IMG/VR virus record: IMGVR_UViG_2648501165_000007
Location: 1 to 6,904 of that record
Length of the DNA stretch: 6,904 nucleotides
Source of the DNA: a virus
Taxonomy: Duplodnaviria; Heunggongvirae; Uroviricota; Caudoviricetes
Reading direction: 5' to 3' (one strand)
The notes beneath the pieces were generated by a model. The model saw only the letters and a program-made list of their open reading frames with translations, did no database searches and was not told the origin of the DNA. How positions within the stretch are numbered: position 1 is the stretch's first letter; each line of letters begins with the position of its first letter. Positions 1,214 through 6,904 of this stretch are shown piece by piece. The translations under genes were made by a program, and so were the position numbers.

Positions 1214-1954
1214 TCACATACCCTGACGTCCAACGTTTGACCGCCAGCTCTCCCAGTTAAAATTCACCCAACGACCACCATTCATGGTCATACGGTCCAT
1301 CACCCGATCTCCGAGGAGTGTGCTCATCGCTGCGTGATTCAGGTTCGTCAGCATTCCGACACTACGCATCGAAGCCGTTCTGCGGTCGACTATCTGGTTC
1401 AGCGTGACCTGCTCGTTGCGCGTATCCCGCTGCATGCCAATTTCATCAAGGACCAGAAGGTCAACTCCACAAAGCTCCTGTAAAAATTTTTCCCCGGACT
1501 GGCCGTTGTCGTAGCCGTCATGCAACACGCTCATGACATCGGACACGGTGACGATAATCACGCTTCTCCCCTTCGCCATCAGCCGATTGCCAATCGCTGC
1601 TGCCAGGTGATTTTTACCGGTACCAGGTTTACCGCTGAACACGAAGTTTGTACATCCGGTCATCAATTCATCGGCAATGGATTTCGCCTGGCTCAGAGCA
1701 TGGCGCTGACCGTCGTTCTGCACCTGGTAATTCGCAAACGAGCATTTACGGTGCAACGGCTGGATGCCTGAACGATTCAGAATTTTTTCCACCCGCAACT
1801 GGCGATTCAGGCGGTTGATCTCCTCGCTACGTTTCTGGCCTTCAGCAAGTTGCCACTCGCGCCACTCCGCTACCGTTCTGAATGGGGCGGTTACATGTGG
1901 CGGGGTCAGTCGGCGGATGCGTTCCAGAACGCCGCCTGTCGCAATATTTTTCNN
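1214..1954 (-). CDS. ydaV: DnaC-like replicative helicase loader (AAA+), YdaV-like
   Basis: Walker A FSGKPGTGKNHLAAAIG and Walker B LLVLDEIG in the track ORF 1214..1798. Manual upstream translation in the same frame gives KNIATGGVLERIRRLTPPHVTAPFRTVAEWREWQLAEGQKRSEEINRLNRQL, which aligns with the remembered YdaV N-terminus. The inferred ATG (plus 1952-1954, c+NN) lies inside the N run, so the start is inferred rather than seen. Confidence 0.8.
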   Translation of the reverse strand, partial: XKNIATGGVLERIRRLTPPHVTAPFRTVAEWREWQLAEGQKRSEEINRLNRQLRVEKILNRSGIQPLHRKCSFANYQVQNDGQRHALSQAKSIADELMTGCTNFVFSGKPGTGKNHLAAAIGNRLMAKGRSVIIVTVSDVMSVLHDGYDNGQSGEKFLQELCGVDLLVLDEIGMQRDTRNEQVTLNQIVDRRTASMRSVGMLTNLNHAAMSTLLGDRVMDRMTMNGGRWVNFNWESWRSNVGRQGM

Positions 1955-2721
1955 NNNNNNNNGTCCGGCAACGAGACAGTGTTAACCTGTCGGAGCAACG
2001 TCTCAGGCCGAACACCTTTCGGCGCGAACAGGCCCTGGTATTCATTGGCGATGCTGTGTCGAATCACCTGCTCAGGTGAAAAACCCTGCTGGCGGAATTT
2101 TTCCAGCTCCCGTATCGCCCCGTTAGCGCCCTGCTCCGTTCGAATCGGTTTACGCAATGCCTGCCTGAACTTAACCCACTCATGCCAGAGTGTTTCCGGC
2201 AACCAGTCAGGCAGCTCGATAGCCTCCGGCTCGAATTTTTTAGACGCTCGTTTTTGGCGAGGGGGATTTAGGGGGAGATCAGTATTTATATCTTCCTCTT
2301 CCTCTTCCTCTGGTAACGCTTTTTGATCCGTTTGTGTAACGCTGCCAGCGTTACCTTTTCGTTTCAGTTCGCGTATTTTTGTAACTCGCTCGTTTGTAAC
2401 CGCCCGTTTTTTAGAGCTTTTTCCGTTATGACGTTCAAAGTTAGGTAGAGAAAGCCCACCGTCATTTTCGACCAGCCATCCAACCTGAATTAACGCATCA
2501 GCAAAACCAGCCATAAAAGTGATGCGGTCTATTGCACTTTTTGTAACGCCGCGAGCGTTACAATCTGCATTACCGTCTATCATTTGTTGATCCGCCCATG
2601 CCCAGAAGCGAATAACCTTCCCTAATGCGGCATCTGGATCAATATTCAGAATCTCAGCAAGCCTGAATATTTCCGGCTTATCCGGCGTAATAACCTCGAG
2701 CTTTATCCAGTTTGAAGCCAT
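1951..2721 (-). CDS. ydaU: replication initiation / replisome organiser protein, YdaU-like (functional analogue of lambda O)
   Basis: ATG at 2719-2721 with AAGGTG RBS. N-terminal region MASNWIKLEVITPDKPEIFRLAEI...GVTKSAIDRITFMAGFADALIQVGWL is typical of phage replisome-organiser N domains. Poly-Glu linker (EEEEEE, 2293-2310) separates N- and C-terminal parts. The 3' end is masked by the N run 1953-1962; the stop was placed at 1951-1953 (Nga on minus), assuming an ATGA overlap with the ydaV-like start. The track ORF reads through to 1906 in an unreliable frame. Confidence 0.65.
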
Positions 2722-2754
2722 TTGTTTTCACCTTGTAACGCTCGCAGCGTTACA
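2312..2754. repeat. dispersed palindromic sites TGTAACGC-N3-5-GCGTTACA (three full copies plus half-sites) within and upstream of the ydaU-like gene
   Basis: Full inverted repeats at 2335-2354 (TGTAACGCT gcc AGCGTTAC), 2542-2562 (TGTAACGC cgcga GCGTTACA) and 2734-2754 (TGTAACGCT cgc AGCGTTACA, perfect 9-3-9). Half-sites GGTAACGCT 2312-2320, TGTAAC 2380-2385, TGTAACCGC 2395-2403. Confidence 0.7.
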
Positions 2755-2798
2755 TTTAACTGATACCGAACAAAACAATCCGGCACGATCAATTTCAA

Positions 2799-3221
2799 TC
2801 AATGCACTACGACAGAATCGCCGGGCGACCCACCACCGCTGAAATGTGCTTTCCGGTAAACGGCCTGGACTGCATCATCATGCGCATCAATTGCCGTACT
2901 CAACGCTTCCTGCGCCGCCAGTAATGCACGGCGTTCCAGGGTATCGAAGATACGGAGTCGGTGACGCAGCTCGCGCGGAAGAATTGCCAGAACCGCAGGG
3001 ATCAGTTTCTGAATTTTTTCCCTTTGCGCTTTCGTTTCACCTTTCAACCAACGGTGATAGATATTCTGCTGATTGTTCCAGTCCTTGCCTGGTACAAGGG
3101 GCAATTCGCCGCCCCCCTGGCGCAGATATTCTTCAGTAATTGCGTTAGCGACCCACGCCTGCCCTTTTTCGGCTGCCAGGGCCAACAACACTGATTCGAT
3201 ATGCTCATGCCTGATTTTCAT
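2799..3221 (-). CDS. ydaT: YdaT-like protein (reported functional equivalent of CII-type regulators in Rac-like prophages)
   Basis: 140-aa ORF starting MKIRHEHIESVLLALAAEKGQAWVANAITEEYLRQGGGELPLVPGKDW, matching the remembered YdaT sequence and length. Its ATG (3219-3221) overlaps the stop of the Cro-like gene in an ATGA arrangement, indicating translational coupling. Confidence 0.65.
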   Translation of the reverse strand: MKIRHEHIESVLLALAAEKGQAWVANAITEEYLRQGGGELPLVPGKDWNNQQNIYHRWLKGETKAQREKIQKLIPAVLAILPRELRHRLRIFDTLERRALLAAQEALSTAIDAHDDAVQAVYRKAHFSGGGSPGDSVVVH

Positions 3222-3460
3222 GAATCAACCGCTCCTATGCTGTTTTCGCTATGCTTACCGTCTGGGGGGAATACATCGTCAAGTCCACAATGAGCGCCAA
3301 GCCGATTAAGGGTAGAAACAATTTTTCTGCACTCCTCTAGCCCAGGGGTACGAAAATTTGCTTCGTAATTTGCCAGTCGGCTTTGTATCCACCCTAACTG
3401 AACAGCGAGTTGTCTTTGAGACAACCCAAGCTGTTTTCGATATGTTGAAATTTTGTTCAT
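3218..3460 (-). CDS. Cro-like HTH (XRE-family) regulator, 80 aa
   Basis: HTH segment LSQRQLAVQLGWIQSRLANYEA. ATG at 3458-3460 with GGAGG RBS about 7 nt upstream on the minus strand. Divergent from the repressor gene and first gene of the replication-side operon. Confidence 0.7.
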   Translation of the reverse strand: MNKISTYRKQLGLSQRQLAVQLGWIQSRLANYEANFRTPGLEECRKIVSTLNRLGAHCGLDDVFPPDGKHSENSIGAVDS

Positions 3461-3556
3461 TGAAAACCTCCGATGACAATTTTAAACACACCTTGTGTTA
3501 TATGGTCAAGCTGTTTTGTGTTTTATGTAAATCACGATTCGTGATACAAGGATGCA
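3461..3556. promoter_or_regulatory. divergent promoter/operator region between the Cro-like and repressor genes
   Basis: Candidate minus-strand promoter: -35 TTGACC (plus 3504-3509), 17-bp spacer, -10 TTTAAA (plus 3481-3486). Inverted repeat AACACA cct TGTGTT (3485-3499) overlaps its -10. Second perfect palindrome ATCACGA t TCGTGAT at 3531-3545, 12 bp upstream of the repressor ATG. No convincing plus-strand -10/-35 found by eye. Confidence 0.55.
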
Positions 3557-3976
3557 ATGGAAAAAGAAAACGAAAAAATTGCCGCTAGTAGGCTCAATGA
3601 CAAAATTGCAATGCGTCTTAAAGAGCGCAGGCAGAAGCTTGGTTTATCTCAAGGAAAACTTGCTGAAATCTGCGGATGGACGCAATCGCGTATAGGTAAC
3701 TATGAGGCGGGCAGCAGAAATGTTGGAGTGCATGACGCTGTCGTATTGGGAAAGGCACTTGGCATATCTCCTCCTGAGCTCCTCTTTGGAGAACAGGAAT
3801 CTTCTGAATTGTGGTTAAATGAATCCCAACGAAAACTTCTTGAGTTGTTTAACCAGCTACCGGGCTCAGAACAACAACGAATGATTGAGTTATTTGAAGT
3901 CCGGCTAAAAGAAATCGATGAGTATGTAGAAAAATATTTGAGAGGCAGGCTTAAAGATAATCCCCCACCGGAGTAA
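3557..3976 (+). CDS. DicA-like HTH repressor (CI-type immunity repressor lacking a peptidase domain), 139 aa
   Basis: HTH LSQGKLAEICGWTQSRIGNYEAG near the N-terminus, followed by LLFGEQ and KLLELFNQLPGSEQQ, matching the remembered DicA architecture (ELLELFNALPESEQ). AAGGA RBS 4 nt before the ATG. Divergent from the Cro-like gene. Confidence 0.75.
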   Translation: MEKENEKIAASRLNDKIAMRLKERRQKLGLSQGKLAEICGWTQSRIGNYEAGSRNVGVHDAVVLGKALGISPPELLFGEQESSELWLNESQRKLLELFNQLPGSEQQRMIELFEVRLKEIDEYVEKYLRGRLKDNPPPE

Positions 3977-4005
3977 TGATCTTGCTATCACAGTAATATG
4001 CCAAT

Positions 4006-4031
4006 CAGCCCGCTATCAGCGGGCTTTTTTG
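4006..4031 (+). terminator. intrinsic terminator after the repressor gene
   Basis: Stem AGCCCGCT (4007-4014) / AGCGGGCT (4018-4025) with short loop ATC, followed by a T tract to 4030; lies 30 nt after the repressor stop. Confidence 0.7.
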
Positions 4032-4072
4032 TACCATCATCATATGACACCCACCACAAAACACATTTCGTG

Positions 4073-4101
4073 TTGACACAAGAAAACGCATTGTGTTTAA
4101 T
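4073..4101 (+). promoter_or_regulatory. sigma70-type promoter TTGACA-17-TTTAAT with an inverted repeat in the spacer (operator-controlled promoter of the leftward operon)
   Basis: TTGACA at 4073-4078, 17-bp spacer, TTTAAT at 4096-4101. Inverted repeat ACACAA (4076-4081) / TTGTGT (4091-4096) sits in the spacer. A further AACAC attt c GTGTT repeat lies at about 4059-4073. Half-sites resemble the ACACA/TGTGT repeat in the 3461-3556 region. Confidence 0.6.
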
Positions 4102-4281
4102 AAGCATATCCAAACAACGCCCCACCAGAGAACGGCAGGACAATACCTCGAGTTATCCAGCCACTGAACAGGGCTAAGTAGCCAGCCTGAGGCATACGAA
4201 CATGACGGCAGTTGTTGATTGATACAAAGCGCAGTAGATAAAACGTTCCGCCACCCGGCGTTAAGGGGAAATGAGGTCAAC

Positions 4282-4434
4282 ATGGATACTATCGATCTTG
4301 GCAACAACGAATCTCTGGTATGTGGCGTGTTTCCCAATCAGGACGGCACATTCACCGCCATGACGTATACCAAAAGCAAAACGTTTAAAACCGAAGCTGG
4401 CGCACGTCGCTGGCTTGCCAGAAATACTTGCTAA
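4282..4434 (+). CDS. ydaF: small protein, YdaF/YdfA-like, 50 aa
   Basis: ATG at 4282 with GAGG 5 nt upstream. Translation MDTIDLGNNESLVCGVFPNQDGTFTAMTYTKSKTFKTEAGARRWLARNTC matches the remembered Rac YdaF / Qin YdfA small proteins in length and sequence. The track ORF 4219..4434 starts further upstream without an RBS. Confidence 0.55.
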   Translation: MDTIDLGNNESLVCGVFPNQDGTFTAMTYTKSKTFKTEAGARRWLARNTC

Positions 4435-4656
4435 TCCATTATTTGGATTAATTCAATATTCTCGCTGTAGGGGTATAGCAGAAACCACCAAAGCCCGGAG
4501 GTGGTGAAATAAAANNNNNNNNNNATTTAAAACTGAAACAGGCGCACGTCGCTGGCTTGCCAAAAATACCAGCTAATCCATTTATTGGATTAATTCAATA
4601 TTCTCGCTGTAGAGGTATAGCCGAGGCCACCAAAGCCCGGAGGTGGTGAAATAAAA
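4384..4656 (+). repeat. tandem direct duplication, two units offset by 142 bp and roughly 90 percent identical
   Basis: 4384-4514 aligns with 4526-4656 at a constant offset of 142, with scattered substitutions. Unit 1 covers the last 17 codons of the ydaF-like gene plus about 80 bp downstream. Each unit carries a hairpin TAATCCA (5 nt) TGGATTA directly after the stop codon. The junction is masked by N 4515-4524. Confidence 0.8.
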
Positions 4657-4759
4657 CCGGGCATAACACGAAGGCGCATTTCCGGTATCCATAAAGAGTC
4701 GGTCTTGTCTGTCAAATTTAAATGGTGGGAGTGCGCCTCCGGTTGTGAATAACAACACT

Positions 4760-4821
4760 GCTGTGTGTAGTCTTGGCGGCATCAGTTTTTTCTTGAAGTT
4801 CGACTGATGTCCGCCCTTTTT
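4760..4821 (+). ncRNA. dicF: DicF-like small RNA (cell-division-inhibiting sRNA family of Qin-type prophages)
   Basis: TTGGCGGCATCAGTTTT and GACTGATGTCCGCCCTTTTT resemble the remembered DicF core (UUUGGCGGUAUCAGUUUU ... GACUGCUCUGCCGCCC). Hairpin GGCGGCATCAG (4775-4785) / CTGATGTCCGCC (4804-4815) followed by TTTTT (4817-4821) forms the terminator. The 5' boundary is approximate. Confidence 0.5.
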
Positions 4822-5129
4822 AAAGTGAATTTTGTGATGCNNNNNNNNNNAAGCTATTGTCCTTCGTAGCAGAGTTATGGGTGAAATATCCGGCGTTAAT
4901 TGTTAACTGGTTAACGTCACCTGGAGGCACCAGGCACCGCATCAACAAAGTTCACTTCAGTGATGAAAGGTGAGAGAAAATGTTGAATGTAGCTATTGAA
5001 AACCAGAACGGGTGGAATTATAGTGCACCTGCACCTCATAAAACGGGTGCCGGGATTTGCACCCCGATGATCACTAGAGCGCATAACCGCGCCAAAGCGG
5101 TTTTTTTATGCGTAAAGCGCAGCCACATT

Positions 5130-5215
5130 CAGATTATGGTGGGGCGTATGGGGCCGTTTTCGGGCGGGCCGGATTCTCTAGTGACCGGTAGTGCAAACCC
5201 TGTACGTCTCACCAC
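5130..5215 (+). ncRNA. candidate c4-like antisense regulatory RNA embedded in the leader of the Rha gene
   Basis: Element a' CTCTAGTGA (5176-5184) and b' GTGCAAA (5191-5197) are complementary to two upstream/downstream pairs: b1 TTTGCAC 5056-5062 and a1 TCACTAGAG 5071-5079; b2 TTTGCAC 5224-5230 and a2 TCACTAGAG 5256-5264. a' is flanked by CCGG/CCGG, which could close a loop. Boundaries are guessed. Confidence 0.4.
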
Positions 5216-5273
5216 CCATGAGATTTGCACCTCCGGTGGTGAGTTTACCAACTTATCACTAGAGGCTGCCATC

Positions 5274-5828
5274 ATGGCTACTATCCCTACCCTTTCTCAC
5301 CCTGACGTAACCATCGAAAATGGTCGTGCTGTCACTACGTCTGTTGCAGTTGCAGAGTTTTTCCGCAAGCTGCATAAAAACGTCATTCAAAAAATTGAAG
5401 CTCTGGAATGTTCCTCAGAATTCACTGAGCTTAATTTTAAGCCAAGTGAATACACCGACTCAACCGGGCGCAAACTCCCTATGTACCAAATCACCAAAAA
5501 CGGCTTCGTTTTCCTGGTGATGGGCTTCACTGGCAAAAAAGCCGCTGCATTCAAAGAGGCCTACATTGCTGAGTTCGACCGCATGGAAGCAGAACTACGC
5601 CAGAATAATACCACTCCCACAAACAAAATCATTCCGGGCGATGGGCGCACTCTGGTTGTTCGCTTCGACAAATTCGGCAACGTCGAATTCACTGAAACCG
5701 TTCCTGATGACGCTCTCGTCTGTACCCTAGACACTTTCCGCCTTTATCTGGAGAAACAGGGCTGGACTCTTGTAAACCGAAGCGCAATTAAAAACATGAC
5801 CGTCGAGCAGTTGCTGAGTATTAAATAG
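5274..5828 (+). CDS. Rha-family phage regulatory protein (antirepressor-like), 184 aa
   Basis: ATG at 5274 with GAGG 9 nt upstream. Motif RAVTTSVAVAEFFRKLHKNVIQKIEAL ... YQITKNGFVFLVMGFTGKKAAAFKEAYIAEFDRME is the Rha-domain signature. The track ORF 4980..5828 carries a 98-codon N-terminal extension over a structured repeat-rich leader, judged non-coding. Confidence 0.7.
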   Translation: MATIPTLSHPDVTIENGRAVTTSVAVAEFFRKLHKNVIQKIEALECSSEFTELNFKPSEYTDSTGRKLPMYQITKNGFVFLVMGFTGKKAAAFKEAYIAEFDRMEAELRQNNTTPTNKIIPGDGRTLVVRFDKFGNVEFTETVPDDALVCTLDTFRLYLEKQGWTLVNRSAIKNMTVEQLLSIK

Positions 5829-5874
5829 TTTTCTGGAATTTTCTTAATACGACAAATTTATTAAGGAGATAATT

Positions 5875-6096
5875 ATGATTGCTCATCACTTCGGAACCGA
5901 TGAAATACCACGCCAGTGCGTGACTCCTGGCGATTATGTTCTTCATGAAGGCCGGACATATATTGCCTCGGCAAACAATATTAAAAAGCGAAAACTTTAT
6001 ATTCGTAGCCTAACTACAAAAACATGCATTACTGACTGCATGATTAAAGTCTTCCTCGGTCGTGATGGTTTACCTGTAAAGGCGGAGTCATGGTGA
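5875..6096 (+). CDS. kilR: KilR-like small protein, 73 aa (Rac prophage cell-division inhibitor family)
   Basis: Strong RBS AAGGAG 6 nt before the ATG at 5875. Length 73 aa and position immediately upstream of the ydaE/racC/recE-like genes match the Rac order kilR-ydaE-racC-recE. Sequence identity is from memory only. Confidence 0.6.
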
Positions 6097-6266
6097 CGAC
6101 TAAGAAAATAAAATGTGCTTACCACCTTTGCAAAAAAGACGTTGAAGAAAGCAAAACTATAGAAAGAATGCTTCACTTCATGCACGGGACTTTATCAAAA
6201 GACGAACCGAGAAAATATTGCAGTGAAGCTTGTGCCGAAAAAGACCAGATGGCACACGAACTTTAA
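6090..6266 (+). CDS. ydaE: YdaE-like small Cys4 zinc-binding protein, 58 aa (not in the ORF track)
   Basis: Manual translation from ATG 6090: [58 protein letters not shown], stop TAA 6264-6266. Cys pattern C-x4-C ... C-x3-C. The start overlaps the kilR-like stop (ATGGTGA), indicating translational coupling. GTG 6093 is an alternative start. Confidence 0.55.
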
Positions 6267-6340
6267 TTAATTGACTATTCGAAACTGAATTTATGCCAGA
6301 AATGGCAGGGATTCGCTCAACCTTAATTCAGGAGAAAAAC

Positions 6341-6616
6341 ATGATTACCAATTATGAAACCACTGTTGTAACTACCGATGACATTGTTCACGAGGTGAAT
6401 CTGGAAGGAAAGCGCATTGGCTACGTAATTAAAACAAAAAATAAAGAAACCCCATTCACTGTGGTTGATATCGATGGTCCATCAGGCAACGTAAAAACAC
6501 TTGATGAAGGTGTCACAAAAATGTGCCTGGTTCACATCGGAAAGAATCTGCCCGCAGAAAAAAAAGCCGGATTTCTGGCAACTCTGATTGCAATGAAATT
6601 AAACGGTGAAATCTGA
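6341..6616 (+). CDS. racC: RacC-like protein, 91 aa
   Basis: ATG at 6341 with AGGAG 6 nt upstream. Length (91 aa) and position directly upstream of recE match Rac racC; the sequence itself is not recognised. The track ORF 6293..6616 starts at an upstream ATG without an RBS. Confidence 0.5.
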   Translation: MITNYETTVVTTDDIVHEVNLEGKRIGYVIKTKNKETPFTVVDIDGPSGNVKTLDEGVTKMCLVHIGKNLPAEKKAGFLATLIAMKLNGEI

Positions 6617-6717
6617 AAGAAATAGCCTGCGTATGGCGCAGGCTATGAACAGTGTGTATCCGGCAAGATCATTCACTGAACAAAACGAATTTTAATCTGA
6701 GTTGAGGTTAAAAAACA

Positions 6718-6904
6718 ATGAGCACAAAACCCCTCTTCCTTTTACGGAAAGCGAAAAAATCATCCGGTGAGCCTGACGTCGTCCTGTGGGCAAGCGACGA
6801 TTTTGAATCAACCTGTGCCACTCTGGACTACCTGATCGTTAAGTCAGGTAAAAAACTGAGCAACTATTTTAAAGCTGTTGCCACGAATTTTCCTGTCGTT
6901 AATG
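6718..6904 (+). CDS. recE: exodeoxyribonuclease VIII (RecE), N-terminal 62 codons, truncated by the window end
   Basis: Translation [62 protein letters not shown] matches the remembered N-terminus of E. coli RecE with a few substitutions. The ORF is open to the end of the window. Confidence 0.7.

Follow-up and report, generated by a model that had tools for sequence, protein, structure and literature searches.

The tandem repeat in the window (the whole 6,904-nucleotide stretch of DNA analysed here) is most probably an assembly artefact, namely a false duplication in which two alleles of one segment were placed in series across a scaffold gap. A preliminary description of this DNA had taken the repeat for a genomic tandem duplication; an assembly error is now the best-supported explanation. 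Our comparison covered assembled sequences. The positions of the features discussed below are collected in Table 1.

A repeat search revealed one strong direct repeat in the window, formed by 4384-4514 and 4526-4656 (131 nt, 91% identical, 142 nt from start to start). The homology reached one base further, to 4383 and 4525, and the two units showed 13 differences per 132 nt. Both units adjoin the same run of 10 Ns, with unit 1 ending at 4514 and unit 2 beginning at 4525 after the run, and the longest identical run between them (30 nt, 4485-4514) lies at the extreme end. TRF gave no report of this repeat, probably because of the intervening N-run. The coding parts translate as FKTEAGARRWLARNTC in unit 1 and FKTETGARRWLAKNTS in unit 2, each followed by a stop codon, and both translations agree with those quoted earlier. 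The preliminary description had further proposed that the coding fragment diverged like a gene, with differences that are synonymous or conservative. The counts do not bear this out: there were 6 differences in 51 coding nucleotides versus 6 in 80 non-coding nucleotides (Fisher p = 0.54), and 3 of the 5 changed codons, as read by eye, were replacements (A>T, R>K and C>S). The differences are spread evenly between the coding and non-coding parts and are too few for testing selection on copy 2.

Table 1. Positions of the features of the repeat, its flanks and the scaffold gaps (window coordinates)
Feature	Position	Strand	Basis
10-N scaffold gap standing for 38 nt in homologues	1953..1962		Seven homologous loci, identical 12-nt flanks
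DUF1391 gene, full length (50 aa, ydfA/ydaF type), whose final 16 codons form the coding part of unit 1	4282..4434	+	Pfam PF07151, E = 5e-30
32-nt stretch identical in V1-type and V2-type genes; left branch point of the bubble	4351..4382	+	Alignment; k=31 simulation
Unit 1 (allele V1): 3' end of the DUF1391 gene and first 80 nt of the leader, to the end of contig 2	4383..4514	+	100% identity in 8 genomes; simulated V1 arm of the k=31 bubble
Hairpin TAATCCA-N5-TGGATTA over the stop codon; unit 2 copy at 4574-4592	4432..4450	+	Fold prediction
Hairpin ACCACC-N10-GGUGGU; unit 2 copy at 4626-4647, with alternative pairing GCCCGG...CCGGGC	4484..4505	+	Fold predictions
10-N scaffold gap between contig 2 (1963-4514) and contig 3 (4525-4840)	4515..4524		Ns in LARS01000413.1
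Unit 2 (allele V2): equivalent segment of a Rac-type ydaF allele, first 132 nt of contig 3; 16-codon fragment	4525..4656	+	100% identity in 16 genomes
DicF-like hairpin with U-tract	4762..4816	+	Rfam RF00039, 42.8 bits, below the 48-bit cut-off, E = 6e-8 (741-nt search)
10-N scaffold gap standing for 35 nt	4841..4850		Otherwise identical L003 allele (strain 2014C-3061)

The window was found to be the complete reverse complement of the NCBI WGS scaffold LARS01000413.1 (GCA_000969495.1, 6,904 bp), N-runs included. Since the Ns were already present in the deposited NCBI record, the three 10-N runs of the window are the depositor's scaffold gaps, and they divide the scaffold into four contigs (1-1952, 1963-4514, 4525-4840 and 4851-6904). 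A gap of 10 N, as a minimum or artificial length, is what Velvet (whose maximum k is 31 by default) and SPAdes put between contigs. We considered whether the Ns could be a mask that preserves length and rejected this reading, as homologues have 35 and 38 nt in place of two of the three runs and the Ns are present in the NCBI record. As judged from the homologous sequences, the 10-N runs are placeholders whose length is not preserved in the record. It follows from the lengths at the two other runs that the offset of 142 and the ten hidden nucleotides are arbitrary and have no physical meaning. The earlier observation of two units at a constant offset of 142 thus stands as far as the 91% identical repeat in the text is concerned, but the offset itself carries no information, and the ten masked nucleotides, which were said to conceal whether copy 2 has a start codon, are a gap of arbitrary length. 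Additionally, the stretch missing at 1953-1962 contains the start codon of ydaV together with the stop codon of the upstream gene. In the list of open reading frames, the deposited upstream frame runs artificially through these Ns and fuses two genes, while ydaV loses its 5' end.

The positions of the contig ends were compared with the polymorphic sites defined by a panel of 50 related loci. The right-hand contig ends at 1952, 4514 and 4840 each lie exactly 30 nt past a difference between panel alleles, with identity in between, and only 2.25% of the window positions share this 30-nt property. At distances of 25, 28, 29, 31, 32 or 35 nt, none of the three contig ends had the corresponding property. 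In particular, the end of unit 1 at 4514 is exactly 30 nt past the last difference between V1 and V2, at 4484, and contig 3 starts at 4525 with the first base where the L003-type allele departs from the contig 2 allele after the 32-nt identical stretch. Two separate loci with the segment in single copy, one of V1 type (L011) and one of V2 type (L003), then served as input for a simulated de Bruijn graph with k=31. The simulated unique arms were 4353-4514 and 4495-4656, which, minus the k-1 overlap, give 4383-4514 and 4525-4656, exactly the two units. The repeat therefore corresponds, base for base, to the arms of an unpopped bubble in the simulated graph. When an L002-type locus (C at 4810) was added to the simulation, the end of contig 3 at 4840 was reproduced as well; alleles of the L005 type were rejected as the cause of this end, since they predict 4843 rather than 4840 (alignment read by eye). 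The observed start of contig 4 (4851) and the branch point expected from the panel alleles differed by one base. The pattern of right-hand contig ends is what a k=31 de Bruijn assembler yields with a second similar sequence among the reads, and additional paralogous sequence in the read set is independently required by the breaks at 1952 and 4840.

The graph also bears on a real hetero-allelic tandem duplication, which would have arisen by illegitimate or microhomology-mediated unequal exchange between V1-type and V2-type Rac-like prophages and which we consider unlikely. Under this alternative, ...GTGAAATAAAAC would be joined to (C)ATTTAAAAC, and the assembler would merely have failed to close the junction. 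With C as the junction base, the k=31 simulation ended contig 2 and began contig 3 at the observed positions, and an AAAAC microhomology, read from the sequences, is present at both putative breakpoints. However, the junction would have to fall 0-1 nt from the first difference between V1 and V2 with C as its first base; with no junction base, or with a base other than C, the simulated k=31 graph contained no repeat, and no gap would arise. The scaffolder set contig 3 directly after contig 2, which speaks for a real duplication, and this placement needs read-pair links, which true adjacency would give too. If the duplication were true, the leader hairpins would be doubled upstream of the RNA of the DicF-like/KilS region and a start-less DUF1391 tail would be left behind; even then, the duplication would amount to a private structural variant and be of limited interest.

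Comparison with other assemblies revealed that each unit matches a known allele. Unit 1 with its left flank (4150-4514) was 100% identical in 8 complete E. coli genomes, where the segment was present once at the examined loci. The whole of contig 3 (4525-4840) was 100% identical in 16 complete genomes, namely strain 2014C-3061 (L003) and 15 others, and the first 629 nt of contig 4 (4851-5479) were 100% identical to L003, the only locus compared over that stretch. The segment equivalent to unit 2 occurs once in each of the loci examined, L003 among them, where it follows a full-length Rac-type ydaF, and no repeat of the segment was found in L003, L011 or L012. The 5' part of the unit 1 gene showed 89.8% identity to the Qin ydfA of K-12 versus 83.8% to the K-12 Rac ydaF, and the earlier suggestion of a Qin-type ydfA set against a Rac-type ydaF is thus reasonable. 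The view that copy 2 did not arise from copy 1 by recent slippage was likewise upheld by the identity of 4525-4840 and 4851-5479 to the Rac-type ydaF region of 2014C-3061. Copy 2 is rather a different, pre-existing allele of the same segment, and the two units are alternative versions of one locus, each of which is single-copy in other assemblies.

These identities weigh against both ways of obtaining a genuine duplication. An old in-situ tandem duplication, whose copies later diverged under selection in the manner of a gene, would account for the 91% identity with some synonymous changes. However, each copy with its flanks is, over 316-365 nt, base for base a separate single-copy allele, a result that divergence in situ cannot yield; the contig of copy 2 contains no start codon for it; and the coding and non-coding parts differ at similar rates. 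An origin of this kind is scarcely conceivable, and it is effectively refuted by the identity of each copy to an allele that circulates separately. For the hetero-allelic duplication, the 100% identity of both copies to alleles that are single-copy elsewhere means that a rare illegitimate event between prophages would be needed.

We searched for the head-to-tail junction in independent assemblies. In 5,426 complete E. coli genomes, no head-to-tail arrangement of the units was found. The 273-nt region was matched by 373 of these genomes, and among the 40 listed of the 373, 37 single-copy matches put both halves of the query onto one place of 131-132 nt. A genome with both units at the observed identity should rank first among the 373 matching genomes, and none did. 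A synthetic head-to-tail junction query gave two-piece (single-copy) matches only in the complete E. coli genomes. The junction pattern, in which unit 1 may be separated from unit 2 by 0-30 nt, matches the window itself, and it had zero matches in the GTDB species representatives, IMG/VR and the JGI metagenomes. No complete E. coli genome was nearly identical to the whole window, the best showing 94.5% identity over 87% of it. The window thus lacks the uninterrupted junction of a true tandem duplication, having an N gap in its place, and the junction was present in none of the independent assemblies searched (complete E. coli genomes, GTDB representatives, IMG/VR and JGI metagenomes), which argues against the hetero-allelic duplication. 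The recombination scar with alleles in tandem that had been proposed at this site is not supported: its junction is an assembly gap, its unit boundaries are graph branch points, and none of the independent assemblies searched contains it.

The leader does duplicate in nature. A 122-nt tandem duplication of the leader between ydaF and DicF was found in E. coli 266917_2 (L002, 2566-2687 and 2688-2809) and also in strains 3059 and Nord58 (H31-H33). Like the pair in the window, it belongs to the part of the prophage that separates ydaF from the DicF-like hairpin, and its unit is of similar size. In contrast to the pair in the window, it is found in gap-free complete genomes, its copies are 98% identical and in register, and it lies wholly 3' of the gene and includes no ydaF tail. 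The presence of a 122-nt tandem repeat in three complete genomes shows the leader to be prone to duplication and to this extent favours the hetero-allelic duplication, whereas the copies of the known real duplication are 98% rather than 91% identical.

Taken as a false duplication, the repeat would have formed as follows. The read set of GCA_000969495.1 would have held two versions of a 132-nt segment that comprises the end of the DUF1391 gene and the beginning of the DicF-like leader. The most likely origin of the second version is another Rac/Qin-like prophage of this genome, a mixed population being less likely. Because no identical stretch of at least 31 nt lies within the two versions, a k=31 de Bruijn assembler would have kept them as two arms of a bubble, of which arm V1 would have remained on the left flank (contig 2) and arm V2 on the right flank (contig 3). 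The scaffolder would then have linked contigs 2 and 3 by a 10-N placeholder despite their overlap in homologous coordinates. We infer both the identity of the assembler and the true residence of the second allele. With the repeat read as an artefact, the true locus holds one unit, and its plausible true sequence is the window minus 4515-4656.

Several observations on related genomes are consistent with a second copy in the read set. The region around the repeat has a median of 2 and up to 13 copies per E. coli genome, and O157 strains are known to carry several copies of the dicBF locus (PMC5069750). In 2 of the 8 complete genomes with the exact V1 allele, a second ydaF-leader locus lies ~580-600 kb away, and a k=31 graph of the two loci of strain F2_407_2_2 breaks at the position that corresponds to 4514.

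The arrangement is similar to the heterotype false duplications described by Ko et al. (2022, PMC9516828), among whose hallmarks is a gap that separates the two copies on a single scaffold, alongside reduced read depth over each copy and discordant read pairs. Here, too, an N gap separates the pair within one scaffold, the two copies represent diverged versions of a single locus and are each joined to one flank only, and a spurious gene fragment is present in the form of a 16-aa partial gene at unit 2. In the window, a gap lies between the copies, alternative single-copy versions exist, and the ends fall at graph branch points. Unlike in those cases, the organism here is haploid, so that a second haplotype is no possible source of the other version, which must stem from a mixed culture or a paralogous copy of the prophage. 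The fragment of unit 2 has no start codon within its contig, and the spurious 16-aa partial gene is on record at the gap edge of the NCBI scaffold (L050, 2329-2380, corresponding to window 4525-4576); a gene fragment of 16 residues at this edge would thus be a consequence of the false duplication. In this scaffold, the artefact has already yielded a spurious 16-aa gene call, and another gap fuses two genes. Copies that touch an N-run in a draft scaffold should be regarded as an unresolved contig overlap until reads say otherwise.

The underlying locus, in which a Rac-like prophage carries a DUF1391 gene together with a DicF-like leader, is ordinary and well known. The gene order of the prophage is ydaV, ydaT, a pair of cro-like and cI/DicA-like HTH genes, the DUF1391 gene, the leader, the DicF-like hairpin, a Rha/Ash-type ORF, kilR, ydaE and the start of recE. 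The gene at 4282-4434 is a full-length DUF1391 (PF07151) gene with start and stop codons, which unit 2 is not, and the PGAP label for its homologue is 'DUF1391 family protein'. The hairpin TAATCCA(n5)TGGATTA and the CCACC..GGTGG element reported in the preliminary description are indeed present in each unit and are predicted to fold. Both of the two substitutions in the first hairpin (4432-4450) lie in its loop. Such loop substitutions, together with pairing-preserving ones, are hints from predicted structures that the leader structure may be under selection. The leader is strongly structured, and the single-copy, 261-nt version from L003 folds with z = -4.8. The three pairing-preserving substitutions, at 4480, 4483 and 4484 (compared over 4459-4484 versus 4601-4626), swap the pairs UUCU/AGAA versus UCUCG/CGAGG, and an extension of the stem of the second hairpin is kept in both units.

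The DicF-like element that had been noted just downstream of the repeat was recovered as a conserved hairpin with a U-tract, although its score lies below the gathering threshold of the Rfam DicF model (Table 1). In the K-12 MG1655 annotation, the ncRNA kilS (b4833) is located upstream of kilR. By BLAST, the kilS region (2906-3003 of the K-12 Rac locus, L054) maps to window ~4725-4822, around the DicF-like hairpin; a literature search found no paper on KilS. By analogy with the Qin dicBF operon (PMC5069750), the leader may be the leader or precursor of a prophage sRNA.

We compared the locus with the Qin dicBF operon of K-12 (ydfA-ydfB-ydfC-dicF-dicB) and with the K-12 Rac region (ydaF...kilS-kilR). 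The shared architecture consists of a repressor pair, a DUF1391 gene, a structured leader and a DicF-like hairpin, followed by kilR/ydaE/recE. There were also differences: the window contains neither ydfB, ydfC and dicB nor the sieB insertion of K-12, where sieB is inserted between ydaF and the leader of Rac. Unlike the K-12 loci, the window has a Rha/Ash-type ORF with isrK and C4 RNA matches between the DicF-like element and kilR.

Two further observations were made outside the repeat. Matches to isrK (5031-5107, 68.6 bits) and to the C4 antisense RNA (5132-5219, 78.1 bits), both above the Rfam gathering score, lie inside the 282-aa ORF annotated as Rha (4980-5828). Residues 14-108 in the N-terminal part of this ORF match Pfam Phage_ASH, and the same DNA thus matches RNA and protein families alike; the true start of the protein may be downstream of the RNAs. 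Additionally, a palindrome of ~20 nt, TGTAACGC-N4-GCGTTACA, was found in three copies ~200 nt apart (2335-2358, 2542-2565 and 2734-2757) inside the 271-aa ORF upstream of ydaV, and these copies resemble iterons or an origin embedded in a replication gene.
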